DNA from: an uncultured virus (IMG/VR IMGVR_UViG_3300042894_007211)
Taxonomy: Duplodnaviria > Heunggongvirae > Uroviricota > Caudoviricetes
Direction: 5' to 3' (one strand)
Virus record (IMG/VR): IMGVR_UViG_3300042894_007211
Length of the DNA: 58,080 bases
Shown here: piece after piece, positions 21,271 to 57,892 of the stretch
Layout: each line of letters begins with the position of its first letter
Position numbering within the stretch: the first letter of the stretch is position 1
Notes under the pieces: model-generated
Told to the model about the DNA's origin: nothing
Databases searched by the model: none
The model's input: the letters and a program-made list of their open reading frames with translations, nothing else
Position numbers and translations under genes: made by a program

Positions 21271-21323
21271 AAAAAGTGTAACTTTCCTTGACTTTTGGCG
21301 TTTATATAGTATATTTATATCAT

Positions 21324-22166
21324 ATGAGAGCACTTAAAATAACCCAATCAATCACTACAAAAGAAACTGAATCATTTAACAAATATCTACGCGATGTTAG
21401 TGGTTTAGATATGATAAACTCCCAAACAGAAATCGAACTGGCTAAACAGATAAAAGCTGGTGATATTAAGGCACAAGATGAATTAGTAAAGGCTAATCTA
21501 CGTTTTGTTATATCAGTAGCAAAACAATATGTAGGTCGTGGTTTAGATATTGAAGACTTAGTATCAGAAGGTAACTTAGGTTTAATTAAAGCCGCACAAA
21601 AGTTTGATGAAACCAGAGGTATTAAATTTATCTCTTTTGCTGTATGGTGGATACGTCAATCTATTCTACAATCATTAGCTGATAATTCTCGACAAGTAAG
21701 ACTTCCCTTAAATCAAATAAACGCCTTAAATAAAATTAAATCAGCTGAAAATGATTTAGAGCAACAACTACAAAGAAAAGCTACTGCATCTGAACTATCT
21801 GAATACTTAGGCGTTACAGAAGATAAGGTTAATCTTTCTATTACCAGTAGTCAAAAGATATCTTCTATGGATACACCTATTGGTGATGATAGTGATTTTA
21901 CTTTAGCAGATACATTTCAATCTTCGGACTTTGCGGATACCGAAATTATACAATCTGATATTTTGCAAAAGATAAATACGGCCCTTAATAGCTTAACTGA
22001 AAGAGAAAGATTTATTATTATCAATCTATTTGGTATTGGAGTTAATGAAATGACTTTGGTAGAGATTTCAAATAAGTTAGACTTAACATCAGAAAGAGTT
22101 AGACAGATAAAAAATACGGCTATTAAGAAATTATCGAAGAGTGGTGTACTTTCTAGTTTAGTTTAA
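21324..22166 (+). CDS. rpoD: RNA polymerase sigma-70 factor, Bacteroidetes primary-sigma type
   Basis: MRALKITQSIT; ANLRFVISVAKQY; KFISFAVWWIRQSI; LTSERVRQIK; no region 1.1. Confidence 0.92.
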   Translation: MRALKITQSITTKETESFNKYLRDVSGLDMINSQTEIELAKQIKAGDIKAQDELVKANLRFVISVAKQYVGRGLDIEDLVSEGNLGLIKAAQKFDETRGIKFISFAVWWIRQSILQSLADNSRQVRLPLNQINALNKIKSAENDLEQQLQRKATASELSEYLGVTEDKVNLSITSSQKISSMDTPIGDDSDFTLADTFQSSDFADTEIIQSDILQKINTALNSLTERERFIIINLFGIGVNEMTLVEISNKLDLTSERVRQIKNTAIKKLSKSGVLSSLV

Positions 22167-22818: not shown

Positions 22819-23685
22819 TTAAATTATATCTGATATATCAAAAAGTATATCACCTGGTCTTATAGGACACTCCATAACTTCTCCTGTAAAACTATAATCA
22901 AAAAGATAAGAATTAGCAAGTTTGTTATCACCTGGTAGTTTAGCCACAATATTTTTATGAATATCATATCCAAACAGTTTAGGAGATGTTGCTATCCATA
23001 AAACAGTAGATTCGAGGCCTAAGGCAGCTGCTGCATGTTGAAGTGACGAATCTATTAGAATTCTTTTATCAGCTACAGCAAGTAAGTAAAATAACTCTAA
23101 ATTAGCCAGTGGTTGCCAAATTGATTCAACACCTGGTATAGCATTAGCCTCAGTTTTACATATTTGTATAATATGATGTGTTTCTTTATAGATTTCAATT
23201 ATTTGACTGGTGATACCCTGAGGTAGGTCTCTTGCCCAACTATAAAGTGGTCCGTTTTCTAAAAGTCCTCCATTAGTTTGGAGTACTAAAATTGGTTTTT
23301 CTCTTTTCCACATCTTTTCACCAATCTGTAGCTGTCTTAGATTAAATTGCAATTCGGGTAATTCACCAGAATATGTTAATCCGTATAACTTACACCAATT
23401 TTCAATTAAGGGCATTTCGCCATTTATATGTTCAGATGTGAAATAAGGTTCGTGTTTAAAAATTAGAGACTTTCCACCTTCTATATAATCCTGATAGAAA
23501 TAAGGAGTGTTTCCAACAGCAAACACTCTATCAACAAAATCTAAACCTAGAAATATTTGTGGATATGAACAAACCACTATTAATTTTAAATTAGGGTAGT
23601 TATTTTTAATACATTTAGCAACTGCCGTAGCTGCTACGTTTTTTCCTAAACCCCCTTCAATGTGAAATACTGTAAACTGTTTCAT
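22819..23685 (-). CDS. Glycosyltransferase (GT9/heptosyltransferase-like)
   Basis: GGLGK N-terminus; LIDSSLQHAAAALG. Confidence 0.75.
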   Translation of the reverse strand: MKQFTVFHIEGGLGKNVAATAVAKCIKNNYPNLKLIVVCSYPQIFLGLDFVDRVFAVGNTPYFYQDYIEGGKSLIFKHEPYFTSEHINGEMPLIENWCKLYGLTYSGELPELQFNLRQLQIGEKMWKREKPILVLQTNGGLLENGPLYSWARDLPQGITSQIIEIYKETHHIIQICKTEANAIPGVESIWQPLANLELFYLLAVADKRILIDSSLQHAAAALGLESTVLWIATSPKLFGYDIHKNIVAKLPGDNKLANSYLFDYSFTGEVMECPIRPGDILFDISDII

Positions 23686-24503
23686 ATTTTATATCCAAAT
23701 TTTTCATAGAACCAAGTAAAGTTATTGACGATGATATCACAATTTGCTTTTCCTAATACATCTAAAAAGTCTTCTTTTACTGGCTCAACTTTTCCTCTAA
23801 TCTCGTGGTCTCCAAATATTCCGTGAATTACATCATTTTCATATGTTAACTGCTCAACATTCTTAAAATCATGTTTGTAGTAGGGAAGACCAATATAATT
23901 ATACAGCTTTTTCATTTCTTTGTCTGGGTTCTTACAAAAGTCTTCAAACTTAATAAAAAGAACTTTATCATCATTTTTCTGTGTGATGAGGTCTTTAAGC
24001 CATTCAATACTTGGACCAACTGGTGGACTTACTGAAAAGTGGACCATTCTAGAATCTGTTGTCATGTTTTTAAGTTCGGCTACATTTACAATAAGAGGAT
24101 CTTTATGTGCGTTTTTTCTAAAGTTCTTTTCCATTGAAGCAAAAATAGATCTAAGGTCTCTAACCATTACTACAATTTTTGGCTCATCTACAACAAACTT
24201 TAAGAAGTTATAGTGACCAATCCAAGCTCTACTTTTATCAAATACATACGGTCTATCTGTGATAGCATCAAAAAACCCATAAAGACCTGACTCACAAAAA
24301 CACTGAAATCCTTTTTTCATATCTTCTTGATCCTGGGCTTTAAAAGCATCACCTGTTGAATAGATAGTTCTAGCAGTCAGAAGGAATTCAATAACACCTG
24401 AAGTTGGTGTTGAATAGATTTCGGGATTTTGCATAAGTATATTTTGTAAGAGTGTTGATCCGGATCTTGGAAATGAAGCGTTATAGAATATTTCTTTAAC
24501 CAT
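23682..24503 (-). CDS. Sulfotransferase
   Basis: PRSGSTLL (5'-PSB) and VRDLRSIFAS (3'-PB). Confidence 0.88.
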   Translation of the reverse strand: MVKEIFYNASFPRSGSTLLQNILMQNPEIYSTPTSGVIEFLLTARTIYSTGDAFKAQDQEDMKKGFQCFCESGLYGFFDAITDRPYVFDKSRAWIGHYNFLKFVVDEPKIVVMVRDLRSIFASMEKNFRKNAHKDPLIVNVAELKNMTTDSRMVHFSVSPPVGPSIEWLKDLITQKNDDKVLFIKFEDFCKNPDKEMKKLYNYIGLPYYKHDFKNVEQLTYENDVIHGIFGDHEIRGKVEPVKEDFLDVLGKANCDIIVNNFTWFYEKFGYKI

Positions 24504-27518: not shown

Positions 27519-28187
27519 TTATCCAAAAGGTTTATAAAGTTTACCAGCCATTCCTTTATCAGTAGAAAGCCAAGCATCTGCTCTTTTAATTATAGCAATG
27601 ATTGCAATTGCAATTAAAGATAATATGGCCCAAGCAGGAATAAACCCAAATTTTCCTGGATTAGTTAATACATCACTCATACCAAGTGAATTTGCCCATC
27701 CCATAAGGTCAAATTTAAAGATAGTTTCTGATAACCATTGTACAAAAACAACTACAATACCGCCAACTGCATTAAAACCAAAAATTCCCTGAAGAATAGT
27801 TCCTACTTTTTGTGTAAAGGATTTCTCCATATATTCTTCCATCTCTTCTTCTCTGGACTCTTTAAGTAATTCTGGGTTCTTTCTCATAAGTCCATCAAAT
27901 ACTTGTTTAAAAGTTAAATCTTGTGCAGTTGCTCCAAAATACTTACTTATTTTTTCAAGTACACCTTTAGAAAAATCAACTACTTTAAAGAATTCTTCAC
28001 ATAGATTATCCAATGATTTAAGAAAAAGATCTTTAGCACCTTTAAAGAATTTCTGAACTCCTTCCCAGATACCATCTAAGATATCAGCCCAAACTTCAGC
28101 AGCACCTTTGATAGGATCAACTGGCATCATAAACATATCTAATGTTTCATTAACACCAAACGACTCAAATGTTTTAATATACTTCAT
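27519..28187 (-). CDS. CTS-like protein with C-terminal membrane helices
   Basis: MKYIKTFESFGVNETLDMFMMPVDP. Confidence 0.75.
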   Translation of the reverse strand: MKYIKTFESFGVNETLDMFMMPVDPIKGAAEVWADILDGIWEGVQKFFKGAKDLFLKSLDNLCEEFFKVVDFSKGVLEKISKYFGATAQDLTFKQVFDGLMRKNPELLKESREEEMEEYMEKSFTQKVGTILQGIFGFNAVGGIVVVFVQWLSETIFKFDLMGWANSLGMSDVLTNPGKFGFIPAWAILSLIAIAIIAIIKRADAWLSTDKGMAGKLYKPFG

Positions 28188-31148: not shown

Positions 31149-31842
31149 TAAACTTTTAACAGGGCTTTTTTTAATACTATTAATCTTTGGAGCAAAATCT
31201 CAATCAAATAAAAAACTTTATGAGTTATCTATGATTAACTCTCATAGACCTGATAGTTCTAAAATCTATTACGATTTAGTTGAAATTAATCATCTTAACA
31301 CTAATCTTATCAGAAAGACTATTAATTCAGAAGAATATATCTTAGTGTGTACTTGGAAACAAAATGTCAGTTTCTATCAAAAAGATACTATTTTTAATAC
31401 CGGGAGTTATAACATATGGGTCACAACGGCTCCTGAACTAAAGAAAAGAATTAAATTTGAATCTCCTAAAGATACTAACTTAAGACTACTTCAGTTACTT
31501 GGTCTACCACCAACATCTAAATACTCTTACTTTGTTGAGTTTTGGGTAAGACCTCAGGATCTTTTTAGACCGTGTCCGGATAGAGAAATTTGGGATGGTA
31601 ATTGTGACCTTTGTTTTCCACAAGGCACACCACAGGATCACATTAATTGGATAAATGAAAATCGAATTTCAAGATACTATCAATGTGACCTTTACAATCA
31701 ATATCCGTGGGGTCAATTAGGATACACTTGGGATTGGAATCCAGATAACAAATCACATGTTGGTTTAAGTGAGTTTATTATTACAACTGGCGCAACTATT
31801 TACGTCAATAAGATAGTGACTACATCTGAGTATTTAAAGTAG
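31141..31842 (+). CDS. Secreted hypothetical protein
   Basis: Signal peptide; LLGLPP, LFRPC, YPWGQLGYTWDW. Confidence 0.7.
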   Translation: MNNKLLTGLFLILLIFGAKSQSNKKLYELSMINSHRPDSSKIYYDLVEINHLNTNLIRKTINSEEYILVCTWKQNVSFYQKDTIFNTGSYNIWVTTAPELKKRIKFESPKDTNLRLLQLLGLPPTSKYSYFVEFWVRPQDLFRPCPDREIWDGNCDLCFPQGTPQDHINWINENRISRYYQCDLYNQYPWGQLGYTWDWNPDNKSHVGLSEFIITTGATIYVNKIVTTSEYLK

Positions 31843-32292
31843 TTGATTTAATTTAATTTCTCTTTTCCATTCTTTTAGGTCATACTTAGTTCTATCCATA
31901 TTATAACCTGTCATAAAATTATCATGATGAAAATGATGGTGCATATTATGGATTAAAGATTCAATCTCTTTATCAATTTCTTCTTCAGTTTCTTCTCCAG
32001 TAAATCCTCTGAAGATATTATAAGTAATTGGTCTATCTCCATTTTGATGTATTTGATCCCCACAACTCAATTCAATTTTCCATAGATGACCACATTCCCA
32101 ATACCTACTATCCATAGAGCGGGTAAGAAAGAAAAGACCTTCGGCATCTCTTTCACTAGAATGAAAAAAAATATATAATCCACCCCATCCAGATTTAATC
32201 TTAGTAAATGAATTTGACAGATTATTGCCTGTTACTTCAATACCTGGAAGTGCTTCTATTGTTTCGGTAAGTTGTTTATATAAGTCTTTCAT
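31834..32292 (-). CDS. C-tagged hypothetical protein
   Basis: Ends WKREIKLNQLL. Confidence 0.75.
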   Translation of the reverse strand: MKDLYKQLTETIEALPGIEVTGNNLSNSFTKIKSGWGGLYIFFHSSERDAEGLFFLTRSMDSRYWECGHLWKIELSCGDQIHQNGDRPITYNIFRGFTGEETEEEIDKEIESLIHNMHHHFHHDNFMTGYNMDRTKYDLKEWKREIKLNQLL

Positions 32293-32579
32293 ATTCCTAA
32301 TTCTTTTAGTTTCTCTTCTCTTTCGAGTTGTGTTTTAAATGGTTCTAGTAATCCAAAGTCATTTTCTTCCCAATTATATGACGATTCATCCATTTGTGGA
32401 TTAATAGAAAGAACTTGTAATTCATAACACATCAAATTAAAGAAATGGTCAACATCTGCTTGTCTTAAATTAAAGTGTTCTACAAAATCACTACCAGGTA
32501 AATGTGGTGGAATATATCCAGGTCTTGAATTCTTTCTAAATAACTGTATACAATCTTCTACTAAATAAGTTTCACTCAT
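32289..32579 (-). CDS. C-tagged hypothetical protein
   Basis: Ends LEREEKLKELGI. Confidence 0.75.
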   Translation of the reverse strand: MSETYLVEDCIQLFRKNSRPGYIPPHLPGSDFVEHFNLRQADVDHFFNLMCYELQVLSINPQMDESSYNWEENDFGLLEPFKTQLEREEKLKELGI

Positions 32580-32806
32580 ATTCCTAGTTCTTTTAATTTC
32601 AATTCTCTCAAAGATTGTTTATGTAATTCTAACTTACCCTCAGGTACCCAATGATTTATTAAATCCAATTCATCATTCTTTATTAGATACCACGTCTGAC
32701 CTCGTTGAGAAAGCCCAGGTTTTAAATTTTGTTCATCGTATTTTATTACTATACCATGATGATGAGAGCCAATCTCTTGTAAATGGTCACCTATATTAAA
32801 TTTCAT
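32576..32806 (-). CDS. C-tagged SH3-like small protein
   Basis: MKFNIGD...; ends LRELKLKELGI. Confidence 0.75.
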   Translation of the reverse strand: MKFNIGDHLQEIGSHHHGIVIKYDEQNLKPGLSQRGQTWYLIKNDELDLINHWVPEGKLELHKQSLRELKLKELGI

Positions 32807-33003
32807 ATTCCTAAATCATTTAATTTTTTATCTCTTATTTCACTAACTACATCAAAATTCCAATAGCAAAAAAGAGTATTGAACCCTTTGAGTTTATAAT
32901 AAAACTGATTATCAACACATTCAATATCTTCTACAAAGTAAGTCTTGTCAATGCTAAGAAGACCACCTCTCTCGGTGGTATTATCTTTACAAACAACAAG
33001 CAT
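32803..33003 (-). CDS. C-tagged small protein
   Basis: Ends IRDKKLNDLGI. Confidence 0.75.
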   Translation of the reverse strand: MLVVCKDNTTERGGLLSIDKTYFVEDIECVDNQFYYKLKGFNTLFCYWNFDVVSEIRDKKLNDLGI

Positions 33004-33789: not shown

Positions 33790-34095
33790 ATGTTTAATTC
33801 AGATAATAATATAATTATGATAATGGGAATCCTGTTAGGCTTAGGATTCATCACAGGTGCTGTCTACTGGATTAATAAATTATTTGTACAAAATACAAAA
33901 GACCAACTGGTAAAATTTGTACTTATTATATTTACTTCACTTGTTGCACTTTTTATTGTTGATAAAACGGTTGCTTTTAGGGTACACCTACTTACTGACA
34001 CAATGAATAATCAATTATTTGACCTTATTAAAACTTTAACACTGATGATATTCTCATATTATTTTGGTACAAAAAATTCTAAATCAGAAGAATGA
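33790..34095 (+). CDS. Three-TM membrane protein (holin-like)
   Basis: Three hydrophobic helices; SYYFGT then charged tail; TAATATATA upstream. Confidence 0.6.
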   Translation: MFNSDNNIIMIMGILLGLGFITGAVYWINKLFVQNTKDQLVKFVLIIFTSLVALFIVDKTVAFRVHLLTDTMNNQLFDLIKTLTLMIFSYYFGTKNSKSEE

Positions 34096-34478
34096 AACAT
34101 ATTAAATCATTTAATCAATATAAAGTTAATGAGACATTGGATATGTTTATGATGCCGGTTGATCCACTTCAGGGTTGGGGTGACGTATGGGATGATTTTA
34201 AATCGTCTATGAAAAAAAGTTATCAAGACTTTATGAAAAGATTAAAAAGAGAAGGTAAGGAAACAAAAGAGGCTTGGAACTTAGTAGTAAAATCAAGTAG
34301 AGGTGAAATAGAACTTACTGACAAACAAAAAGATAAAATCTGGACTCAATTAAAAGATATATTTAAAGCAATTGGTTTAGGTGTGATTTCTGCGATTCCT
34401 GGATCAGTTGCAATATTTATGATAATAAAGTTTTTCAAATTAGAAAAACATCTACTACCTTCTGCTTTTGTTGATTAA
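34092..34478 (+). CDS. CTS-like protein, N-terminal paralog of 27519-28187
   Basis: MKHIKSFNQYKVNETLDMFMMPVDP. Confidence 0.75.
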   Translation: MKHIKSFNQYKVNETLDMFMMPVDPLQGWGDVWDDFKSSMKKSYQDFMKRLKREGKETKEAWNLVVKSSRGEIELTDKQKDKIWTQLKDIFKAIGLGVISAIPGSVAIFMIIKFFKLEKHLLPSAFVD

Positions 34479-36198: not shown

Positions 36199-36897
36199 AT
36201 GATTAACTGGAGTGGATATCAATGGCTTCAACAAGAAAGATGGGGACAGGTTCATCCTGAAAAGCCACACTGGTGGTATGATCCTTCTGCATCTTATATT
36301 GATAGTGAAGGTAATCTAAATCTTTTAACAAAAAGAAATCCTAGATATTTTCCAGAAATTGACAAAACATCAACAATTGGTGTAGGATTAGTTTCTTGTC
36401 AAACAAAATTTGGTTTTGGTGAATTTGAAATTGAAGCAAAGTTACCACACGGTGATAATCTTTGGCCAGCATTTTGGATGTGGTCTTGGGATAGTTGGCC
36501 ACCAGAGATAGATGTACTTGAGGCATATTCCGATAACAATCCTAATTATTTTAAATTTAGACTGGCAAAACTTTTTGGTTTTTGGAATGTTCAAACTAAC
36601 TTACATTATACTAAATCTGGTAACAATAAAATGTTGGGTGCAAAAACTCACTTTTTTGGATTTAAAGACCCAACAAAAAATTGGATTAAGTATTCAGTAG
36701 CTTGGACACCAAATAAAGTTGAATTTTATTACGGTGGTAGATTAGTTAGAAAGGTTAATGATCCATTAATTTTAGAACAACTTAGTAAGACAAAAATGAA
36801 TGTTATTATTAACAATGGAGTTACCGGTGAAGTTAACTTAGAAAAAGAAAACTTTTCAAACTTTGTTATCAAAAATTTTACTTACAATTCTTATTGA
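36199..36897 (+). CDS. Glycoside hydrolase family 16
   Basis: WPAFWM and catalytic EIDVLE (ExDxxE). Confidence 0.88.
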   Translation: MINWSGYQWLQQERWGQVHPEKPHWWYDPSASYIDSEGNLNLLTKRNPRYFPEIDKTSTIGVGLVSCQTKFGFGEFEIEAKLPHGDNLWPAFWMWSWDSWPPEIDVLEAYSDNNPNYFKFRLAKLFGFWNVQTNLHYTKSGNNKMLGAKTHFFGFKDPTKNWIKYSVAWTPNKVEFYYGGRLVRKVNDPLILEQLSKTKMNVIINNGVTGEVNLEKENFSNFVIKNFTYNSY

Positions 36898-37120
36898 TGT
36901 GATTAAAATAATCTTTTCTATCTTTTAGAACGGTTAGTAACAAAAAAAATCCACTGATCACTAATGCTAACAGAGTATAAAAAGTTTCCATATTATATAT
37001 ATCTACACAGTATAAAAAATTGTATAGATTTAACTTTATTAAATTGTTAAATATAATTTATATTATTATATTTGTAACTATTTTAGAAGTAAGAAAGTTA
37101 GAAAAAACTATCAGAATTAA

Positions 37121-37399
37121 ATGACACCAAATGAAATAATAAAAATTTGTCCTGGTATTGAAAAAATAACATTGGATGCTTATGGTGAATTTTTAGGCAA
37201 TGATTTCAATCCAAATAAAACTTGGAAAGAAATGGGACTAGATGATTTAGATGTTATCGAAATGATAATGAAACTCGAGAAAAAGTATGACTTTGAATTT
37301 CCAGATTATTTAATAGATGAGGTATTTGGTGAAAATATGAAACCAATCAACTTTATTAGTGTAGTAAGACAAAATAAATTAAACGACTTAGGAATTTAA
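37121..37399 (+). CDS. Acyl-carrier-protein-like protein, Ser-to-Asp, with C-terminal tag
   Basis: EMGLDDLDVIEMIMKLEKKYDFEFPD; ends VRQNKLNDLGI. Confidence 0.75.
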   Translation: MTPNEIIKICPGIEKITLDAYGEFLGNDFNPNKTWKEMGLDDLDVIEMIMKLEKKYDFEFPDYLIDEVFGENMKPINFISVVRQNKLNDLGI

Positions 37400-37737: not shown

Positions 37738-37956
37738 CTAAATATCAAATTTTGTTTTATTGATGTTTTTAGACAAGCAGACAGAACACCAATTTTGTTC
37801 TTTGTCTTCGGTGGCAAATTCAAACCCACAATCATCACACTGAAATGAAAATAACGGATTTTTATCAAATAATTGATTGTTTACTGGTCTGAGTGAGTTG
37901 TAGTGTTGCCAAGTGCCAACTTGTATTTCCGACTCAAACTTTTTAAGATATTTCAT
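37738..37956 (-). CDS. CTS-like zinc-ribbon protein
   Basis: MKYLKKFESE; CDDC..CSVC; TAATATATA at 37961-37969. Confidence 0.7.
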   Translation of the reverse strand: MKYLKKFESEIQVGTWQHYNSLRPVNNQLFDKNPLFSFQCDDCGFEFATEDKEQNWCSVCLSKNINKTKFDI

Positions 37957-37966
37957 AGGTTATATA

Positions 37967-39238
37967 TTAACCACCACCAAGCATTTTTTTACTTCGTCTT
38001 TTTCTATGAAAATCCAATGAAAACCGGTGCACTTCATTTAGAATATGTGCAAACTCCGTATATCCTTTAATAGAGATGTCGGATCCGTTTGATAAATGGA
38101 TTAAATTTGCTTGATGTTTTTCGGATTTAGAAATTGAAATGACATCTAACTTATCAAAGATATGTAGAGATTTAAGCACAGATATAGCAACATTCAATTG
38201 AGGTCTTGCTCCATCTATGATAATCAAATTTGGAAGGTTAGTCTTTTCTTCAATAAGTCTTTTAAATCGTCTGATAAGTACCTCATCAAAACTTCTATAG
38301 TCATCACCACCGGCACCTGATTTAATGATAAACTTTCTCCATTGTGATTTATCGGCTTCTAATAAGGTATAACGAACCATTCCACATACTGCTTCAGTAC
38401 CAGCGGTGTGTGAGTTATCGAAAGCATCAATGACAGTTGGTAGATACTTTAAACCTAAAGACTTTTGAATAGATTCCACTCTATGTCTTTTATCAATTGT
38501 AATTATTGGCTTTAATAAATTTTTAATCTTTTCAATAACTAAGATTTTGATTTTGTATTTTTGAGCCAATTCATATTCTAAAACACTCGCATGATAAGTC
38601 ATTTTTCTTTTAAAATATTTTATTGATGTATTAAAGTTAAAATTAAAAATATCTTTAATTAATTTAATAGTATGTAAATAGTCAATTTTTTTTGCCAATC
38701 CAATACATGGAGCGGAACATCTATCCATATGCCATTCTAAACAGGCTTTAAATTTACCGCGTTCTACATTCTCATCAGTAATTTGATAAGAGCAACTTCT
38801 TAGTTTAAAGATATCATAGATTGAGTCATAAACTTCTTTTGCGACTTTTCCGGAAGTAAATTCACAAATAACTTCTCCTTCAAATTCTTCTTGTGGATAA
38901 AATAATTCTAATTTTTTCCACTCATCACCAGTTAATACTAACTTACTTCTGATAGTTTTACTATCTTTTCCTTTTATGTTAAATTTTGGTTTGTAAAGTT
39001 TGATAAGATCCTCTTCTAATACTAAAGCTTCATTTTCACTTTCAGTGGAAATAAAATCAACATTTTTAATTTCAGTAACCAACTTAGAGGTTTTAACATC
39101 TTTATGATTTTTTTGAAAATAACTGCTCACTCTCTTGGGTAGATATTTTGATTTACCAACATAGATGATTTGGTCTTTACCATCTTTGAAAAGGTAACAA
39201 CCTGCAGTTTGTGGAATAGAAAAATCCTTTATATTCAT
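37967..39238 (-). CDS. uvrC: Excinuclease ABC subunit C (short form lacking HhH)
   Basis: GIY-YIG (GCYLF..IIYVGKS), Cys cluster, UVR, RNase H-like (FDNSH, DD, IIDG, EVHRF). Confidence 0.9.
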   Translation of the reverse strand: MNIKDFSIPQTAGCYLFKDGKDQIIYVGKSKYLPKRVSSYFQKNHKDVKTSKLVTEIKNVDFISTESENEALVLEEDLIKLYKPKFNIKGKDSKTIRSKLVLTGDEWKKLELFYPQEEFEGEVICEFTSGKVAKEVYDSIYDIFKLRSCSYQITDENVERGKFKACLEWHMDRCSAPCIGLAKKIDYLHTIKLIKDIFNFNFNTSIKYFKRKMTYHASVLEYELAQKYKIKILVIEKIKNLLKPIITIDKRHRVESIQKSLGLKYLPTVIDAFDNSHTAGTEAVCGMVRYTLLEADKSQWRKFIIKSGAGGDDYRSFDEVLIRRFKRLIEEKTNLPNLIIIDGARPQLNVAISVLKSLHIFDKLDVISISKSEKHQANLIHLSNGSDISIKGYTEFAHILNEVHRFSLDFHRKRRSKKMLGGG

Positions 39239-40149: not shown

Positions 40150-41568
40150 ATGAAAATTATAAATTTTTTATCTTTGGTATTTGGTCTAATCATTTTTACA
40201 TCTTGTGAAGAAAGTGGTCCAGAAAATCAAAGGTTTATAAGAAAAGAAATTCATTCACCAGAGGCATTAGAAGATGTTAAGGCAATGAATAAAGCCTTAG
40301 AAATAATGAAGTCAAAAGGATGTCAGGATCCACTTAGTTGGTATTATCAGGGCGCAATTCACTGGGTCCCGGATTCAATTCCAAACAACCAATTTTGTGA
40401 TAGCTACCACACTTTCGTAGATAGTAAATTGGCTTGGAGAAATTGTACACATTCAAAATCTAAGGAAGAAGAAATACATTTTTTAGTTTGGCACAGAATG
40501 TATATTTGGCATTTTGAAAAGATTGTAAGAAAGTTGTCAGGTAAAAAAGATTTTGCTCTTCCATACTGGGACTATACTTCAGGTGATAAGTCAAAGATGT
40601 CACTGCATCCGCTTTTTAGAAATAATAAATCTTATTTATATGAAGACTGTAGATTTGATTCAATCAATAAAGGTTATCCAATTGAAGGTGAGGTAGAAAG
40701 AGCACTTGATATTACAAAATTGATGACCTATACTAGTTATGAGTTATTTAATAAAAATATGGATAGAGCACCACACGGAACAATTCATGATTACATTGGT
40801 CATGGAAATGATTATAATGATGGAAAACTGTGGTTTGATAATCCAATCACTGGAAAAAAATCACACGATGGTTTAATGGGTTGGGTACCAACTGCTGGTT
40901 TCGATCCAATCTTTTGGACACACCATTCAAACATTGATAGAATTTGGCAAAAATGGACTAATTCAGATAATGGTCAAATGATTACATTAGAATTATTAAA
41001 GTCAGTCGAGTGGCCTTACATCTTTTTTGATGAGAATGGCAAAGAAGTAAGGTATACACCAGAACAAATTTACAAGATACTTTATAGTATGGACTATGAT
41101 TATGATGATGCTAAAGTTGAGCCTAAATTAAATCAAATGCCTGTTAAGTTTTCAAATAAACAATTAATCAGTCAATTAAATCCTAAGACTTTATTAAGTG
41201 GTCAAAATACTAAAATTAATTTAGAAAATACTTTAGATGTAAAATCTAAGAGTGTTGTTATTGAAATTGAAGCTTCTTATAAAGAGGTACCATCTGGAGT
41301 TTACGAAGTTTATTTAAACACTAAACAAAGAAAAACAGGATCTAAAAACTTTGTTGGATTTATGACATTCTTTGGTGAAGATCACAAATCACCAGGCAAA
41401 TCTTGTAAAAATGGATGTTGTCAGGCGGTGACAACTGATGGTAGAACAAAGATGAAATTTGTTTTTCAACATAGTTTAGAAAAGAATTGGCAATTTCATT
41501 TTTACAATCACAATGGTTATTCAACAGGTGATTTACGAATAGATAAAATTACAATTAGAAAAAATTAA
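40150..41568 (+). CDS. Tyrosinase/polyphenol oxidase (type-3 copper), lipoprotein
   Basis: FTSC lipobox; CuA IHW..CTH..WHR; LPYWD; CuB PHGTIH..FDPIFWTHH. Confidence 0.9.
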   Translation: MKIINFLSLVFGLIIFTSCEESGPENQRFIRKEIHSPEALEDVKAMNKALEIMKSKGCQDPLSWYYQGAIHWVPDSIPNNQFCDSYHTFVDSKLAWRNCTHSKSKEEEIHFLVWHRMYIWHFEKIVRKLSGKKDFALPYWDYTSGDKSKMSLHPLFRNNKSYLYEDCRFDSINKGYPIEGEVERALDITKLMTYTSYELFNKNMDRAPHGTIHDYIGHGNDYNDGKLWFDNPITGKKSHDGLMGWVPTAGFDPIFWTHHSNIDRIWQKWTNSDNGQMITLELLKSVEWPYIFFDENGKEVRYTPEQIYKILYSMDYDYDDAKVEPKLNQMPVKFSNKQLISQLNPKTLLSGQNTKINLENTLDVKSKSVVIEIEASYKEVPSGVYEVYLNTKQRKTGSKNFVGFMTFFGEDHKSPGKSCKNGCCQAVTTDGRTKMKFVFQHSLEKNWQFHFYNHNGYSTGDLRIDKITIRKN

Positions 41569-44230: not shown

Positions 44231-44659
44231 TTAATCTAAAATCTGATTGATTTTTTCTTCTCGATAACTTGATGTATCCACATCTACTTCGACTACCTCA
44301 TAAAAAGAAACAGTTACCATTTTATAATATTCATTTACTTCATCTTCATTTGCTGATGGATGTAATCTGTTTTCAGTAGATTCCCAGGTGTAGTTTTTCT
44401 TAACTTCACCATACTTTTTAATAAGTGAGTTGTTAAACTCCTCAAATACATCCCACTCGACATTTACACAGTTTTCATATTCATATGCAAAATCAGTAAT
44501 TGAACTTTCTTTATAAGCTTTAATATTTAGTTCTTTCACTTTTTCTTCTGCATCTTTCTTTGAGAAGCAAACAATTTTTGGAGTTCCGCCTTCGGTTTCG
44601 TTATAAATACTATCATCATATTCATAACCTTTTTTCATTACAATATAAGCTTTATTCAT
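44231..44659 (-). CDS. C-tagged hypothetical protein
   Basis: Ends YREEKINQILD. Confidence 0.75.
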   Translation of the reverse strand: MNKAYIVMKKGYEYDDSIYNETEGGTPKIVCFSKKDAEEKVKELNIKAYKESSITDFAYEYENCVNVEWDVFEEFNNSLIKKYGEVKKNYTWESTENRLHPSANEDEVNEYYKMVTVSFYEVVEVDVDTSSYREEKINQILD

Positions 44660-46451
44660 TTGTTTTATTTGTTAATTGATGTTTTACTAATTCTTTATAA
44701 TATTCACAATTTTCTAATAGATAATCATGAGTTCCTTCTGCTAACAATTCGCCTTGCTTAAGAACAAAAATCTTATCACAGTTTTTAACCGTTGAAAGAC
44801 GGTGTGCGATTATAATAGATGTCTTTTCTTTGGAAACGGCATCTATTGATTTTTGAACTACTCTTTCACTTACCGTGTCTAAAGCAGAAGTTGCTTCGTC
44901 AAAGATAAGTATTTCTGGGTTCTTAGCCAAAGCTCTCGCGATACCAATTCGTTGTTTTTCACCACCGGATACTTTAGCTCCACGTTCTCCAACAATGGTG
45001 TCCCAACCATGTTCCAGTTTTTTATAAAAGGCGTCAATACGAGCCATCTTTGATATCTTATTTAACTCTTCATCAGATAGAACCGTTTCGGTTCCATATG
45101 AAATATTATCACGAATACTTTTATCAAATAGATTTACTTCTTGATCCACACTTCCAATTTTCTTTAAGAATGATTTGAGTTCCAAGTCTCTTAAGTTATT
45201 ACCATTGATTAAAATTTCACCACATTGTGGATCAAATGCTCTTCTGACAAGGTTAGCAATTGTTGATTTACCAGAACCACTTTCACCAACAAAGGCAACT
45301 TTTTCACCTTCTTTAATTTTAAAGGATATACCTTTTAAGACCATTTCAGGTTGTAGTTCTTCTTCATCTTTATCATTATGATTTTTCTTTCTAACTGGAT
45401 AACTAAATTCAACATTTTTAAATTCTATATCTCCTGTGAGATTTTCAGAAATTGGATTTTCAATTTCTTCAACATCCGGTTTGATTTCAAGTAGTTCAAA
45501 ATATTTTTCAATGTTTATTTTATCGGTGATAAACTGTTTTTGCATATCAGTTATCATCCAAAGTGATATAATAAAATTTTGAGACCAAGTGAAAATAAGA
45601 AATATCGCACCGGCTGTAATATACCCATTAAATAATAACCAAACTGCAAATAGTATAGTTAAGTATCTAAAACCAGCAGTTCCTATTCTAATAAGTGTTA
45701 ATAAGTTATTACCTGGTATCCAAGTTCTTTGGAAAGCATCTTGATGAACGTCTTGAACATTGTCTAAATCACCTAATGATTTCTTTTCAGCTACTTCATT
45801 TTTAATTAAGAAAACAAAACGGTATAATTCAGAAATAGTTCTAGCTGTTTGGTTTCTAGCATCTCTTACTTCTCTTAATTTAGGTTGTAGATACTTGTTA
45901 AATTTATAAACCGACCATAAGAAAAGAATTGATATTCCTAAATATGAAAATCCAATAACGGAGCTTATGTAGAATAACATAACAATTGAAACAATAAAAT
46001 TGGCAATTGCTGGAAAAAGATGATAAACAAACATCTGAATTTGTCCTTGAACTGAAGTGAACCCAGCTGTTATAATATTTTGTTTAACACCAGAGTGTTC
46101 ATTTATATGTTGGCCATTTGAGAAATTAAAATACTTTGCTATTGAATAATGATTAAGATGATTAGACGCTTTAATATCTAAGTTTCTAATTTCAATATTT
46201 CCTTGAAATCGAATAATGAGTATTCGAATGAGAACTCCAATACCTGCAAATCCTGCAAACATTAAAGCAGTAGACATGTATTGAGGATCATTAGAATGCT
46301 TTTGTATAACATCAAAGATGTTACTTAAAAAGTAGGTACCAACTGCTTCGATAATTGAAGTAAGAAGTATACAAATAAAAATAATTCCGATTGTTTTTCT
46401 AAAGGGCTTAGCGAATTCCCAAATTCGTTTTATTAACGTCCAATTTGTCAT
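44652..46451 (-). CDS. ABC transporter, fused TMD-NBD (ABCB/MsbA-like)
   Basis: TM helices; GESGSGKS; VSGGEKQR; LIFDEATSALD; IAHRL. Confidence 0.93.
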   Translation of the reverse strand: MTNWTLIKRIWEFAKPFRKTIGIIFICILLTSIIEAVGTYFLSNIFDVIQKHSNDPQYMSTALMFAGFAGIGVLIRILIIRFQGNIEIRNLDIKASNHLNHYSIAKYFNFSNGQHINEHSGVKQNIITAGFTSVQGQIQMFVYHLFPAIANFIVSIVMLFYISSVIGFSYLGISILFLWSVYKFNKYLQPKLREVRDARNQTARTISELYRFVFLIKNEVAEKKSLGDLDNVQDVHQDAFQRTWIPGNNLLTLIRIGTAGFRYLTILFAVWLLFNGYITAGAIFLIFTWSQNFIISLWMITDMQKQFITDKINIEKYFELLEIKPDVEEIENPISENLTGDIEFKNVEFSYPVRKKNHNDKDEEELQPEMVLKGISFKIKEGEKVAFVGESGSGKSTIANLVRRAFDPQCGEILINGNNLRDLELKSFLKKIGSVDQEVNLFDKSIRDNISYGTETVLSDEELNKISKMARIDAFYKKLEHGWDTIVGERGAKVSGGEKQRIGIARALAKNPEILIFDEATSALDTVSERVVQKSIDAVSKEKTSIIIAHRLSTVKNCDKIFVLKQGELLAEGTHDYLLENCEYYKELVKHQLTNKTNE

Positions 46452-47371: not shown

Positions 47372-48097
47372 TTATTTAGTAAGTACTTCTCTGTTGTAGT
47401 AATCATCAAAACCTTCAAGCATTTTCTCCATAGAGCTATCACCGATAACCTCATCGATTAAACCAAACTGAAGTGCTTCATGTGAATTGAACCATTTATC
47501 TCTACGAGAAGACTCAATCATTTCCTCAAATGTTTTACCACAGTTTTGTGCTAAAATGTTAAATAAGATATAATTGTATTTGTGTCCTTCAATGTGTGAG
47601 ATTGTTGTGTCCTGAATGTTTCCTTGCATTCCGTGAGAAACTTGGTGTGTCATAACTCGTGAGTTAAGGAGCGAAGAACGCTTTCCTTTTGTTCCTGATG
47701 AAAGAAGAACAGAACCCATTGATGCTGCCATTCCTGTATTGATTGTTTGGATATCCGAATTGATATAGTTCATAACATCAATCATTGATAGTCCTGACTT
47801 AACTGATCCACCTGGACTGTCAATGTGCATTGTAATATCTCGTTTCTCAACTGAATCCAAATACATAAGTTGAGCTTGAACAACTGTTGACATTTGGTCA
47901 TTTACAACACCAGCCACCCAAAGAATTCTATCTCTCATTAATCGTGAGAAGATATCCATTTGTGTTACACGCATTTCTCTTTCTTCTAAGATGTAAGGTG
48001 TCATTGATGCTTCAATTTGTTCCCCATAGTAATTGAGGTTCATTGATGAAATTCCTTCGCTTAGTGCGAATTTTTTAAAATCTTTTCCGTAATCCAT
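47372..48097 (-). CDS. clpP: ATP-dependent Clp protease proteolytic subunit
   Basis: DIFSRLMRDRI, IDSPGGSV, AASMGS, MTHQ, EALQFGLID. Confidence 0.95.
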   Translation of the reverse strand: MDYGKDFKKFALSEGISSMNLNYYGEQIEASMTPYILEEREMRVTQMDIFSRLMRDRILWVAGVVNDQMSTVVQAQLMYLDSVEKRDITMHIDSPGGSVKSGLSMIDVMNYINSDIQTINTGMAASMGSVLLSSGTKGKRSSLLNSRVMTHQVSHGMQGNIQDTTISHIEGHKYNYILFNILAQNCGKTFEEMIESSRRDKWFNSHEALQFGLIDEVIGDSSMEKMLEGFDDYYNREVLTK

Positions 48098-48732: not shown

Positions 48733-49071
48733 ATGAGAATTATATCAAATAGTAAGGGTGATTATGTTCAGGTGTTAGAGGAGTTCCTAGGAATAACCTT
48801 AACAACAGAAAATGAAGTTCGGTGGAGTGTTGTTCTTTATCACGGTGAGGTTATGATATTTCATGAGCCCTCAACTAAATTATATACTAAAGATGAATTC
48901 ATTGAGTATAAAGATAATTTAGGATTAGCTCAATGGCGAAGTTCTTCTCTTAAAAAAGATAGAATGAAACTTTTTGATGAGCTCTTAAAATCTCTTATTA
49001 AATTTGAGAGAGAATTAAAAATAGATAAAGTCTTAAGAGATGAAAATGAATATCAATATTGGCTATGTTAA
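48733..49071 (+). CDS. C-tagged hypothetical protein
   Basis: FERELKIDKVL near end; TATATTTG at 48718-48725. Confidence 0.7.
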   Translation: MRIISNSKGDYVQVLEEFLGITLTTENEVRWSVVLYHGEVMIFHEPSTKLYTKDEFIEYKDNLGLAQWRSSSLKKDRMKLFDELLKSLIKFERELKIDKVLRDENEYQYWLC

Positions 49072-49193
49072 ATAACGAATTGAAATACTTTTATGAAAAT
49101 TTGTTAAAGACATCTGGTGTTCCCTTAAAATACTTTGGTGTCAAAAACATTATTAGAATGAATAAAATAAAAAGAATATTTAATGAAAATTGA
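49065..49193 (+). CDS. 42-aa C-tagged microprotein (not in ORF track)
   Basis: MLNNELKYFYENLLKTSGVPLKYFGVKNIIRMNKIKRIFNEN. Confidence 0.55.
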   Translation: MLNNELKYFYENLLKTSGVPLKYFGVKNIIRMNKIKRIFNEN

Positions 49194-49719
49194 TTACAAC
49201 ATAAACAATACTCAGAAAATTAGTTTGGTCTTTTTAAGATGGTATCCAAATGAAAAGAATTTTGAGGAATTAACATCTGATGATTTTTTTTCAATTGATG
49301 ATATCACAGTTTCAGAAAGTGATGGAGTTATTTCCTATTCTCATGTTGAAGAGCGTCAGTTTTATAAAACTATGCCATCAAATTTATCAGAGGTAAATAA
49401 TAAATTCAATTTCATAGTTGAAATTACTTTTGAGAAAGTAAATTACTTTAAGTCAAAAATAGTTACTGGAAACAAAATGCAATCCATTAGACTTATGACT
49501 TATGAAATTTTATCAAAGTATAAAAAGAGTGAGGTCATTGGAGGAACAGATGCTTTAATGAAACTAAATCATCCTAACATAAATGTTGAAAAAACTCACA
49601 CTATGGAGATTAAACCAGTTAAGATTTTAGAGAAGGATTGTGTAGATGGAAAGTATGAATTGAATTTGCTTATTAAAGAGTTTTTAAGAGATAGTAAATT
49701 AGATGATTTAGGAATATGA
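49183..49719 (+). CDS. C-tagged hypothetical protein
   Basis: Ends FLRDSKLDDLGI. Confidence 0.75.
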   Translation: MKIDYNINNTQKISLVFLRWYPNEKNFEELTSDDFFSIDDITVSESDGVISYSHVEERQFYKTMPSNLSEVNNKFNFIVEITFEKVNYFKSKIVTGNKMQSIRLMTYEILSKYKKSEVIGGTDALMKLNHPNINVEKTHTMEIKPVKILEKDCVDGKYELNLLIKEFLRDSKLDDLGI

Positions 49720-50390
49720 AATTATTAAAACAATATATTGATAAGTTACCTAAAGACTTAAAGTTTGATACTTTTGAGTTTATAAAGAAAAATATACTCT
49801 ATCTTAATGAAGATTGTAAAAACGTTCTAATAGAAGATTTAATTAGAATTGATTTTAATAATCTTTATCCCAATATCATTTTAGGTCTTTATAATGAAGG
49901 TCTTATTGATACAAAGTGGGAAAGTGATATCAAACAACTAAAATCATTTTTAGAGAATGTTGATGAATTAAAAAGAACGACTAAAGAACTTATTGGAAAA
50001 CCTTATGATGATTTACAAGATTCTATTCTCAGTTCTTATAAGTCAGGAAGAATTCATGCTAATGGACTTTATGGTAAAATAAAATCACCATTAGTAGTTG
50101 AGTATTTACATCTAATTTATACTGACATAATTGAAAAGTATAAAGATGATATTGTTTATATTGATGTTGATATGATAATATGTAAAAAAGATATTGATAT
50201 TTCTAATATACCTGCGAAATCTGAAATGTCTAAATTAGAATACTTTTATATTGAAAATAAAAACAGATATATTCTTTTTTACAATGGTCAATTAGAAACA
50301 AAAGGTCATAGTAAATTTACTAATATGGATTTACTACAATTGGTCAAAAGTGAGATTAGAACTCGTAGATTAAATAAAATAGGAATATGA
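49716..50390 (+). CDS. Minimal family-B DNA polymerase-like palm/fingers protein with C-tag
   Basis: DFNNLYPNII (A), RIHANGLYG (B), YIDVD (C), NKNRY; ends IRTRRLNKIGI. Confidence 0.7.
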   Translation: MKLLKQYIDKLPKDLKFDTFEFIKKNILYLNEDCKNVLIEDLIRIDFNNLYPNIILGLYNEGLIDTKWESDIKQLKSFLENVDELKRTTKELIGKPYDDLQDSILSSYKSGRIHANGLYGKIKSPLVVEYLHLIYTDIIEKYKDDIVYIDVDMIICKKDIDISNIPAKSEMSKLEYFYIENKNRYILFYNGQLETKGHSKFTNMDLLQLVKSEIRTRRLNKIGI

Positions 50391-50692
50391 TTGAATTTTT
50401 TATAAAAGCTGAGTTAAAATACCATAAAGTAAGGTATAATTTACAATTTTCCGATGAAAAAACATCTGAAATAATTAAATACATCAAAGAAGGTGTTTAT
50501 GCTTTTCAACTTATTTATAATGAAAATCAACAAGTGATTTTAGTTAAACCTTTAGATTGGACTAAAGTTCGGTCAACTTTAGATTGTTGGTCTTATGATG
50601 GTGGAAAATATTTTGGCTATTCATCAATTGAAACCTTAAAATTAGATATACAAAAGATTAGAGAATTAAAATTAGATAGTATATTAACCTAA
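50387..50692 (+). CDS. C-tagged hypothetical protein
   Basis: Ends IRELKLDSILT. Confidence 0.7.
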   Translation: MIEFFIKAELKYHKVRYNLQFSDEKTSEIIKYIKEGVYAFQLIYNENQQVILVKPLDWTKVRSTLDCWSYDGGKYFGYSSIETLKLDIQKIRELKLDSILT

Positions 50693-52102: not shown

Positions 52103-52708
52103 ATGATACCAACTGCATCAGATATAATACTTCATTCAGGACTTCACCCAAAACGCGTGCATAACATTTATGTCTTTGGAAGTCGTGTTTATAAAACCAA
52201 CTCAGATAATTCTGATTGGGATATCATAATGGTCGCAAACAATTCAGTAGAAGCAATTGAGTTGAAATTGGAAAAGTATAACATTCATATTTATACCCCG
52301 GATAAGTTTAAAGAAGATTTAGAGTGGCATCGTATAAACAACTTAGAATGTATTTATGCCCCCACTTGGGCTAAAATTCAAGAGAATATAAAATATGATT
52401 TAGATATAGACTTTCCTAAACTAAGACATGCAACTTCTCATATAAGTTCCAATAGTTGGGTCAAGTGTAAAAAGAAATTAGAAATTGGAGACTATTACAC
52501 TGGAATAAAATCTATTTTTCATTCACTTAGAATTCCGATGTTTGCAACTCAAGTTGCAACTAAAGGAACTATTTATGACTTCGAGGTGGCTAATCCGATT
52601 TGGGAAAAGTTAATAAGTAAAGAATGGACTTGGAAAGAGTTGGACAATGAGTTTAGAGAATTAAGAAATAGTATCCTAACTGAATTTAGAAAGGTGTGTG
52701 AGAAATGA
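52103..52708 (+). CDS. Pol-beta-family nucleotidyltransferase
   Basis: FGSRVY..SDWDI; TATATTTG at 52088-52095. Confidence 0.85.
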   Translation: MIPTASDIILHSGLHPKRVHNIYVFGSRVYKTNSDNSDWDIIMVANNSVEAIELKLEKYNIHIYTPDKFKEDLEWHRINNLECIYAPTWAKIQENIKYDLDIDFPKLRHATSHISSNSWVKCKKKLEIGDYYTGIKSIFHSLRIPMFATQVATKGTIYDFEVANPIWEKLISKEWTWKELDNEFRELRNSILTEFRKVCEK

Positions 52709-52839
52709 ATGAAAAGGAAGTAGAAAAGGCTGTTGAAAAGATGTATCAGAAGTTAAACCCTAAAAGAGGAGCTGCTAGTAGATACTTTAGAAACTATATA
52801 AGAAAAAGAAAAATTAAAAGAATATATGAAACTAAATAA
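52705..52839 (+). CDS. 44-aa tagged microprotein
   Basis: Ends IRKRKIKRIYETK; ATGA-coupled. Confidence 0.55.
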   Translation: MNEKEVEKAVEKMYQKLNPKRGAASRYFRNYIRKRKIKRIYETK

Positions 52840-52957
52840 CATTTCCGGTGGTGTTGATATGTATTATCAATCAACTTTAGTTTATGAGTTAGGTAAAAGA
52901 CTTTTAAGAAAGTCAAATAGAAAAGAAAAAATTAAAAAGTTATTTAATGAACATTAA
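52826..52957 (+). CDS. 43-aa tagged microprotein
   Basis: Ends NRKEKIKKLFNEH. Confidence 0.55.
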   Translation: MKLNNISGGVDMYYQSTLVYELGKRLLRKSNRKEKIKKLFNEH

Positions 52958-53078
52958 GAATTTTGACATAGTTTTAGAGATGCCAATAGGTTTAAATTCA
53001 TTTACACACTCAATGACTATATTTTCATCGAGAAAGAATTTAAGAAAAGAAAAAATTAAAAGAATATGGATGATGTAA
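52947..53078 (+). CDS. 43-aa tagged microprotein
   Basis: Ends LRKEKIKRIWMM. Confidence 0.55.
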   Translation: MNIKNFDIVLEMPIGLNSFTHSMTIFSSRKNLRKEKIKRIWMM

Positions 53079-53269
53079 TAAAAAAGATGTTAGACGAGAT
53101 TTATTTAGATAGAAAGTCTAAGAAATGCGCATTAACAACCGTTGATACATCTTTAGTTAATATGGATTTTGCATCTCTTTATCCTAATCAAATGAAGTGG
53201 TGGAATATAACTCCTGTTCCAGAAAAAGTGATTATAAGAAAAACAAGAATAAAAAGAATATTTCAATAA
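53066..53269 (+). CDS. 67-aa tagged protein carrying PolB motif A
   Basis: MDFASLYPNQMKWWNI; ends IRKTRIKRIFQ. Confidence 0.65.
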   Translation: MDDVIKKMLDEIYLDRKSKKCALTTVDTSLVNMDFASLYPNQMKWWNITPVPEKVIIRKTRIKRIFQ

Positions 53270-56823: not shown

Positions 56824-57320
56824 ATTTCTATTTGTATTGTTGATAACTTTATATCACTCCTCTTAGTTCGTGGTTCATCTAAAACATCCATTACTTTGGA
56901 TTTAACATCATCTAATGAATATATTTCAAGTTTGTAAAGGTTACTAATTTGTATATCAAAGTCTTTAACAAGTATTCTTCTATGTTGGGAAATATGTGAT
57001 TTAACTAATTCATCAAGTTCTATTAGAGTATCAAAGAACTCTTCGATTTTTTCAATAGGAACTTCAAATTTAAACTTTGCGACTACATTTCCTATAAAAT
57101 TCCAATACTCCTCGTCTGATTTAGAAAAGTCTCTTACCTCAACTTTTGATGTATAATCATAATAGTCGGTTAATTCATAAAGACAATCAGAAACACCTTT
57201 AAGATATTCATCTTTGATTTCTTTTACACCTTTATCATAATCAGCTTTTACTTTGACCCACTTTTCGTAAGCATCATCATTTACCGATTCAAATAATTTA
57301 TATGTTTGTAAGTATCTCAC
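56820..57320 (-). CDS. CTS-like protein
   Basis: MRYLQTYKLFES. Confidence 0.7.
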   Translation of the reverse strand: MRYLQTYKLFESVNDDAYEKWVKVKADYDKGVKEIKDEYLKGVSDCLYELTDYYDYTSKVEVRDFSKSDEEYWNFIGNVVAKFKFEVPIEKIEEFFDTLIELDELVKSHISQHRRILVKDFDIQISNLYKLEIYSLDDVKSKVMDVLDEPRTKRSDIKLSTIQIEI

Positions 57321-57892
57321 ACACCTATTTGTTTTTTAAGTAAGTCAAAGAAATCAACTGGATTTAATCTCTGAATGTCATCAGACATCATTTGATAAAC
57401 CATATCACCTGCTCTTTCATTTCCTCTTAATCTCATTTCCTCAAAATTCATTTCTCTTTCAAATCCGCAAGCTCTCATTGATTGAATTGCAAAGTCATTC
57501 GCATCTCTTTCGAATCTACTATAAGATTGTAAAAATGATTCTCTATCTCCATTAACAACGGTATCATAATATCCTTCCATAAATCCACCTTCTCTATGTT
57601 GGTCACAATGTCTACTTTCATGAAGAGCTAAAAACAATTTAACATGTGGAGGCATTGGAAGTCTTTCGTTAAGAGCGATTATATTTTCTCCTAAAAAGAC
57701 ACCAGCTATTGGTTGAGTTGAATTAAAAGAGAAAAGATGAATTCTAATATCTCTTCTATTCTCACTCCACCACCTAACTATGTTTGGTCTCATTGGATTT
57801 GGAATTCCAATTCTTTCAAGTAATTGTTCGATAGTAACTAATGTGGAGTTATCCAATCTCTCAAATAGTTGGAAGTGTTTTAAATGTTTCAT
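57317..57892 (-). CDS. HEXXH metallopeptidase-like protein with CTS-like N-terminus
   Basis: MKHLKHFQLFE; LHESRH..FERDAN; TAATATATA at 57898-57906. Confidence 0.75.
   Translation of the reverse strand: MKHLKHFQLFERLDNSTLVTIEQLLERIGIPNPMRPNIVRWWSENRRDIRIHLFSFNSTQPIAGVFLGENIIALNERLPMPPHVKLFLALHESRHCDQHREGGFMEGYYDTVVNGDRESFLQSYSRFERDANDFAIQSMRACGFEREMNFEEMRLRGNERAGDMVYQMMSDDIQRLNPVDFFDLLKKQIGV

Follow-up and report, generated by a model that had tools for sequence, protein, structure and literature searches.

Within a 58,080-nucleotide stretch of phage DNA (hereafter the window), we identified a stand-alone gene whose product, P0001, is by its sequence a member of the acyl carrier protein (ACP)-like superfamily without function as an acyl carrier. 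Serine-less phage ACPs of this kind are a real, conserved and mis-annotated family with a known fold. As judged from the residues that the family retains, P0001 probably mimics the surface of holo-ACP in a form that cannot be loaded, and would bind a host ACP partner.

The translation of the P0001 gene, which includes MGLDDLDVIEMIMKLEKKYDFEFPD, scores 27.2 bits against the Pfam PP-binding model PF00550 (cut-off 20.8). The initial annotation had suggested this search as a check, and the score, together with the alignments to ACPs, bears out its description of an ACP-like protein in which DSL reads DDL. The score against the TIGR00517 equivalog is 29.1, well under the cut-off of 70.45; matches were also obtained to the NCBIfam ACP models, all far under their cut-offs, and to PHROG families labelled acyl carrier protein. 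In a phmmer comparison with the PDB, the best 60 of 107 distinct sequences (E≤1) were ACPs or known mitochondrial ACP subunits (best E 1.4e-6). The G-L-D-D-L-D of P0001 pairs with G-L/A-D-S-L-D of ACPs, and the Ser of D-S-L in the solved ACPs aligns with Asp42. The sole Ser anywhere in P0001 is S80 and, because there is none at or near the site, the protein cannot be loaded by any phosphopantetheinyl transferase (PPTase) and cannot hold thioester cargo, in agreement with the earlier claim that it cannot be modified at the canonical position. Two base changes would be needed to turn the GAT codon of Asp42 into any Ser codon. Four public runs were compared with the window: the three that cover this codon (X3, X4 and X14) all read GAT with no alternative letter, and the fourth (X12) ends at 37231, before it. 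Run X4 differs inside the ORF at 37255 and 37258 only, and both differences are silent. In helix II and the following loop, P0001 carries the conserved residues D41, L43, D44, E47, M50, E53 and D62; in E. coli numbering, a comparison of residue types finds it hydrophobic at the acyl-pocket positions 43, 46, 50 and 54 (Phe at 54), and it has Lys at 45 and 49. The N-terminal pattern MTxxEIxxxCPxxxK is kept among its close homologues.

Features of the window around and beyond the P0001 gene
Feature	Position	Strand	Remarks
Two adjacent gamma-glutamyl cyclotransferase (AIG2-like) genes	13802-14146, 14273-14728	+	
Sigma-70	21288-22166	+	
Sulfotransferase	23682-24503	-	
GH16 glycoside hydrolase	36199-36897	+	
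TTG, candidate -33 element, Bacteroidota sigma-A promoter	37044..37046	+	20 nt before -7 box
TATATTTG, TAnnTTTG -7 box	37067..37074	+	47 nt ahead of start codon
Serine-less ACP-fold protein gene (P0001)	37121..37399	+	stand-alone, 92 aa, net charge -8
Family-specific N-terminus, residues 1-28	37121..37204	+	two short helices and a helix replacing ACP helix I
Recognition helix II with the loop after it, residues 41-62 (E. coli 35-56)	37241..37306	+	conservation
Asp42 codon GAT at phosphopantetheine Ser36 position	37244..37246	+	sequence, alignments, runs
C-terminal tag RQNKLNDLGI	37367..37396	+	end of last helix 78-89; pattern ends 20 other ORFs
UvrC-like gene	37967-39238	-	
Tyrosinase-like protein, lipoprotein-like N-terminus	40150-41568	+	
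ABC transporter	44652-46451	-	
ClpP	47372-48097	-	

AlphaFold2, run on the 110-row family alignment, gave a model of P0001 (pLDDT 92.3, pTM 0.79) with helices at residues 3-9, 11-15, 18-28, 42-56, 62-69 and 78-89. When the model was compared with the PDB using Foldseek, the listed rows were all entries with carrier proteins, with probabilities up to 1.0, TM values of about 0.4-0.5 and none at E≤0.001. Carrier proteins also made up most of the best 50 rows of a VIA search, led by a mycobacterial AcpM complex with a Z of 5.7 (rmsd 3.3, 68 residues), within a range that is common for helical bundles. As such a Z alone is insufficient for a helical bundle, kinship with ACPs is argued from the agreement between the structure match and the sequence match. 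The moderate fold match, together with the changed N-terminus and last helix, indicates that P0001 as modelled is an ACP domain that has been remodelled rather than closely copied, with the last helix continuing into the C-terminal tag. Helices I, III and IV depart from ACP, and interfaces for some partners may therefore be lost.

The closest known proteins are the bacterial AcpPs (PF00550, TIGR00517; H. pylori 5h9h, E. coli 1l0h and the Bacteroidota ACP in locus L059). Both they and, as modelled, P0001 are acidic helical bundles that share the helix-II motif D-x-L-D-x-[IV]-E-x-[IV]-M-x-x-E-K with x-I-x-D, and P0001 and an ACP labelled Chryseobacterium are 30% identical over 56 aa. Unlike AcpP, P0001 has Asp in place of Ser36, lacks T39, has another N-terminus and a longer helix III, ends its last helix in the phage tag, has no fab neighbours and scores under the TIGR00517 cut-off.

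To follow the site through the family, we used a word-based search, which returned 11 homologues among 12 candidates (63-92% identity to P0001), and a profile search against 1.84 billion representatives, from which the best 150 of 191 matches were used. Asp stands at the site in 12/12 close homologues (63-92% identity). The listed profile matches, the query and the first matches together make 161 proteins, with Asp at the site in 71, Glu in 35, Ser in 34 and another residue or a gap in 21, a count in which Asp matches are favoured by a profile seeded with Asp sequences. Selection for a length of 80-135 aa and a loose tag at the end gave a tagged set of 110, in which the invariance of the tag Arg is a product of this filter. 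Among the 51 of 161 left out, 31 have Ser, and most resemble ordinary untagged ACPs. In the 110 listed tagged relatives, position 36 is Asp in 63, Glu in 31, Ala in 3, Ser in 3, Asn, Gly and Thr in 2 each, and Val, Tyr, Gln and His in 1 each; Ser is thus absent from 107/110, and an acidic residue is found in 94/110; the initial annotation had asked about conservation of the Asp. Its two adverse outcomes, homologues that keep Ser and a fold other than ACP, did not occur: Asp is conserved and the best structure matches are ACPs.

The mean column identity of the 110-row alignment is 22%, and PF00550 matches 55/110 of the listed tagged members (E≤0.001). Against this divergent background, the conservation in E. 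coli numbering among the 110 listed is 90% for D35, 91% for L37, 92% for D38, 91% for E41, 84% for M44, 100% for E47, 79% for I54 and 97% for D56, and these same residues are held in the 23 bacterial ACPs that were parsed at 25 loci. K48 is kept in 69% of the family versus 100% of the 23 parsed bacterial ACPs, and T39, which also varies among Ser-bearing phage ACPs, is lost. Position 36 itself is looser (85% Asp or Glu, entropy 1.8 bits versus 0-0.7 bits for its neighbours), with neither Asp nor Glu in 16/110 listed members. Length and motif are retained through about 100 clusters at 50% identity among the listed matches. The family therefore combines a conserved partner-facing surface with loss of the attachment residue, as would be expected of a mimic, and keeps the AcpP-type acidic helix II (D35, D38, E41 and E47) together with I54 and D56. 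As read from this alignment, the docking residues of the serine-less family are under selection.

In a quick tree (99 columns), all 110 members and one untagged Gly-type protein fall on one side of a branch with SH-aLRT 95. Three tagged members with D-S-L (P0111, P0125 and P0152) form one group and could be loadable, which would suit them as natural controls. They are nested in the quick tree (SH-aLRT 95), yet an AU p of 0.295 allows their grouping with Ser ACPs, and we therefore do not claim a reversion. Convergent loss of Ser across phages was likewise set aside, as an AU p of 0.537 does not reject one origin; for the AU tests we masked the trait column and used a smaller tree. Serine-less ACP-like domains also occur in longer untagged proteins, some of them in tandem (P0104, P0105, P0149, P0150 and P0160). 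Scanning with a 12-row alignment gave 3 loci in viral contigs, all Ser-type ACPs by motif where parsed, and 29 loci in metagenomes, among which were 2 tagged family members (L004 with Glu and L005 with Gly).

Phage-encoded ACPs (PHROG 5934 and 4154, and auxiliary genes named 'acyl carrier protein') are also of ACP fold and usually lie amid small genes of unknown function. Checking 13 of the 71 cultured-phage records matched by a Ser-ACP query, we found Ser in 12/13 (phiMAM1 being the exception) and the tag in none, unlike P0001, which suggests that Ser-bearing phage ACPs are common and that the serine-less proteins are a distinct subset. Serine-less ACP domains are encoded by Pseudomonas phage Lu11 (Lu11_0346, Asp), Serratia phage phiMAM1 (MAM_092, Glu; Ackermannviridae), Aeromonas phage ZPAH1 (N-terminus of rIIB, Glu) and the phage genome LR756504.1 (a tandem pair, Glu). 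Like P0001, these domains are acidic at the Ser site and keep helix II; unlike P0001, they are untagged and have other N-termini, and the cultured phages among them have proteobacterial hosts. Phage ACPs are treated as lipid-metabolism genes in the available parts of three reports (PMC13573597, PMC8224337 and bioRxiv 10.64898/2026.03.01.708874), the last of which predicts binding of a phage ACP to host FabZ, with the serine unmentioned in the portion available. The accessible sections of PMC13573597, PMC8224337, PMC10892097 and 10.1101/2022.08.04.502604 mention ACPs and do not raise the missing serine, and acyl carriers go unmentioned in the accessible passages of PMC9723584. Our literature search, which covered mostly main texts from outside the subscription journals, found no description of a serine-less phage ACP or of the tag.

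The window has 30% G+C, is 92% coding and contains 110 ORFs of at least 40 aa (our own caller), with virion-protein matches alongside the sigma-70, ClpP, UvrC-like, GH16 and tyrosinase-like genes. The P0001 gene is isolated, with a gap of 223 nt after the GH16 gene and a following ORF that converges on it; its neighbours are the GH16, UvrC-like and tyrosinase-like genes and small ORFs, without linked fab, PKS or PPTase genes. The ClpP of the window is 72% identical to that of phage LR745206.1 (634,780 bp), with the next listed records at 42-46%. According to passages of PMC7162821, five genomes of >634 kb, which may include LR745206.1, belong to the Mahaphage clade and are from phages predicted to infect Bacteroidetes. 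Matching DNA was found mostly in lake or freshwater metagenomes, with no RNA data set among the matches listed, and a pattern-driven scan with the helix-II motif gave Bacteroidota in 22/25 confirmed genome loci among the matches listed. From the ClpP kinship, the Mahaphage paper, the helix-II matches and the promoter type we infer a Bacteroidota host, and thus a freshwater megaphage of Bacteroidota as the source.

Among related phages, LR745206.1 has one Asp-type family member with a tag-like end, and LR756504.1 carries its two untagged Glu-type genes in tandem (locus L037, 1489-2058; about 109184-109753 of LR756504.1), directly before a gene that we take from its motif to be initiation factor IF3-like. 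LR756502.1, one of three related complete genomes, gave no family match, which makes the gene dispensable across the wider group. PPTase (PF01648) and ketosynthase (PF00109) were absent from all three of these genomes, with controls positive in 10 and 14 of 14 genomes, and comparison by eye of four loci (the window, L004, L005 and L036) found no shared neighbour gene; together, these results disfavour a pathway of the phage's own. A PADLOC search matched 0/5 proteins.

The host-type promoter proposed in the initial annotation was recovered upstream of the P0001 gene. Its TTG, which we take to be the -33 consensus of the Bacteroidota sigma-A promoter, and the -7 box occur as a pair in 0.25% of 20,000 local intergenic resamples (6.3% for the -7 box alone). 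TAnnTTTG is given as the flavobacterial sigma-A -7 box in the consulted part of PMC9723704, and the same box lies just upstream of the homologue in LR745206.1. Across the window, the box is weakly enriched, with 17 intergenic occurrences versus 9.8 expected (maximum 18 in 200) and, in a separate count among 54 genes, 10 sense versus 5 antisense. A scan for E. coli-type promoters (13 versus 6.4 expected, no terminator) was set aside. In run X4, a related phage has a 204-bp insertion at 37081/37082 that separates the promoter from the ACP-like gene. The match of other contigs is confined to 37030-37073, so the promoter appears to recur at other loci. A different upstream element, TAATATATA, precedes 12/13 genes with an N-terminal MKYLKxFE-like motif and 0/11 C-tagged genes having upstream gaps (the window and three LR745206.1 stretches), which argues that the P0001 gene is probably outside the late class.

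The C-terminal tag noted in the initial annotation proved to be widespread. The pattern R-x-x-[KRQ]-[LI]-x-x-[LI] lies ≤5 residues from the stop in 21/110 window ORFs (at least 40 aa); in 2000 residue shufflings, the count averaged 0.12 and never exceeded 3. Internally, the pattern occurs once in 15,909 positions. Its terminal restriction and its spread over ORFs point to a phage-wide terminal signal that is not specific to the ACP-like protein. We propose that the tag, a basic amphipathic helix, may act apart from the ACP domain as an address or docking signal shared by many small proteins of this phage. Because the tag codons vary synonymously, a protein-level signal is preferred over a DNA repeat; AGA encodes the Arg in 20/21 tags versus 70% window-wide, and a DNA-level contribution is possible. 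Tagged ORFs span the window from 11281 to 54006 (e.g., 31834-33003 on the minus strand, and 49059-50692 and 52705-53269 on the plus strand). Four very small ORFs in tandem at 52705-53269 close with a variant form, R-K-x-K-I-K-R-I, and where the tag is of the LGI type, it often shares bases with the start codon that follows (GGA ATA TGA). About 13 window ORFs carry the N-terminal motif MK[YH]LKxFE (e.g., 5790-7037, 27519-28187, 37738-37956 and 57317-57892), which is never found on C-tagged ORFs and usually has TAATATATA ahead of it. These ORFs resemble a late class whose signal is of the capsid-targeting type, presumably akin to that of T4. Two of the proteins with this N-terminal motif (27519-28187, minus strand, and 34092-34478, plus strand) both carry VNETLDMFMMPVDP after it. 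The phage ClpP is a candidate link to the terminal tags.

Taken together, these observations are best accommodated if a freshwater megaphage, probably one infecting Bacteroidota, has among its early or middle genes one for a remodelled ACP domain that cannot be loaded. Host RNA polymerase would transcribe the gene from its own TAnnTTTG promoter. The product keeps the acidic face of helix II by which partners recognize ACP, with Asp or Glu where the phosphoserine would stand. P0001 would then occupy the ACP site on a host protein and deliver no cargo. In the available parts of PMC3340395, FabZ, FabA, PlsX, SpoT and MukB bind ACP via helix II and M44/I54, and an S36T ACP is non-functional; MukBEF is described in passages of PMC8669397 as bound and stimulated by AcpP without cargo passing, and the S36 phosphate as touching R839 of MukB. 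According to a section of the review PMC3896788, apo-ACP inhibits glycerol-3-phosphate acyltransferase and fatty-acid synthesis. P0001 would resemble AcpP in its complexes with MukBEF and SpoT, where helix II docks and cargo is not transferred (portions of PMC8669397 and PMC3340395), and would differ in that those systems use a modifiable host ACP, and SpoT does not bind apo-ACP in the portion consulted of PMC3896788. The acidic residue at position 36 may replace the phosphate; against this detail, position 36 varies more than the positions beside it and is neither Asp nor Glu in the 16/110 listed members mentioned above. An acidic residue in the first turn of a helix is favoured for stability alone.

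As for the partner, the lipid-synthesis enzymes (Fab, Lpx and acyltransferases) and an ACP-using stress or defence protein have about equal chances of being the target, and PPTase is a minor option. SpoT, which the initial annotation had listed among the possible partners, is disfavoured: it is confined to beta/gamma-proteobacteria in the accessible text of PMC3340395, and the host signs point to Bacteroidota. For ACP-activated toxins, also on that list, no paper was found in the literature searched. A more specific version, in which a Bacteroidota stress or anti-phage sensor is switched via its ACP-binding site and silenced early in infection by a phosphate-mimicking, unloadable ACP that is delivered by the C-terminal address tag found on about a fifth of the genes here, is speculative and, in our view, doubtful.

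An alternative of which we think less is that P0001 serves as a non-catalytic cofactor of a phage protein or complex, in the manner of AcpP-MukB or ACP-LYR, possibly as a hub for the basic R-x-x-K tags. This unlikely arrangement would fit the stimulation of MukBEF by AcpP without cargo (PMC8669397, in part), the encounter of an acidic protein (net -8) with a basic amphipathic helix on 21/110 ORFs, and the fusion of serine-less ACP domains to phage rIIB. Nevertheless, the four loci share no conserved neighbour, and 8000 longer candidates scored yielded no longer fused form at E≤1e-4 and hence no informative fusion, itself a weak argument; moreover, the residues kept are those that host partners read, and P0001 is itself tagged. 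It is improbable, too, that the domain has been co-opted as a generic acidic scaffold (for example, a nucleic-acid mimic or metal binder) without any ACP partner, Asp or Glu36 capping helix II. The tolerance of Ala, Asn, Gly, Thr, Val, Tyr, Gln, His and Ser at position 36 in 16/110 listed members and the drift of the fold speak for such a scaffold, and D35 and D38 are presumably helix caps as well, but a scaffold would not fix E41, M44, E47 and D56 at 84-100% while positions 45 and 49 (Lys in P0001) vary. The persistence of hydrophobic residues at pocket positions 43, 46, 50 and 54 could be taken to mean that P0001 still carries acyl groups by other chemistry, as an acyl-aspartate anhydride or by non-covalent binding in the pocket; we regard this as very improbable, given that Asp and Glu are interchangeable, that 16/110 listed members have neither and that the three related genomes contain no partner enzyme. 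We know of no carrier of the acyl-aspartate or non-covalent type. Finally, a sequencing error or a decaying ACP pseudogene, to which the scores far under the ACP equivalog cut-offs might point, can be practically dismissed in view of the two base changes separating the codon from Ser, the GAT in 3/3 covering runs, the silent differences of X4 and the about 100 listed clusters (50% identity) that retain length and motif.

Four of the 11 word-search matches carry the database label 'acyl carrier protein'. As the family, with its about 100 divergent clusters among the listed matches, cannot carry an acyl group, the label is wrong for its members, and so is the ecological inference based on it; the practice of counting phage ACPs among lipid-metabolism genes is likewise a misfit for them. 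P0001 is among the few tagged proteins with a recognizable domain and so offers a handle on the tag. A natural ACP that cannot be loaded is, moreover, a bait with which to find the host ACP partner that phages need blocked, and could reveal a new route of anti-defence or host takeover, or yield a naturally occurring inhibitor of lipid synthesis in bacteria. If the sensor reading were true, it is tempting to speculate that bacterial immunity includes an as yet undescribed branch that depends on ACP, to which the serine-less ACPs of unrelated phages would be a pointer.
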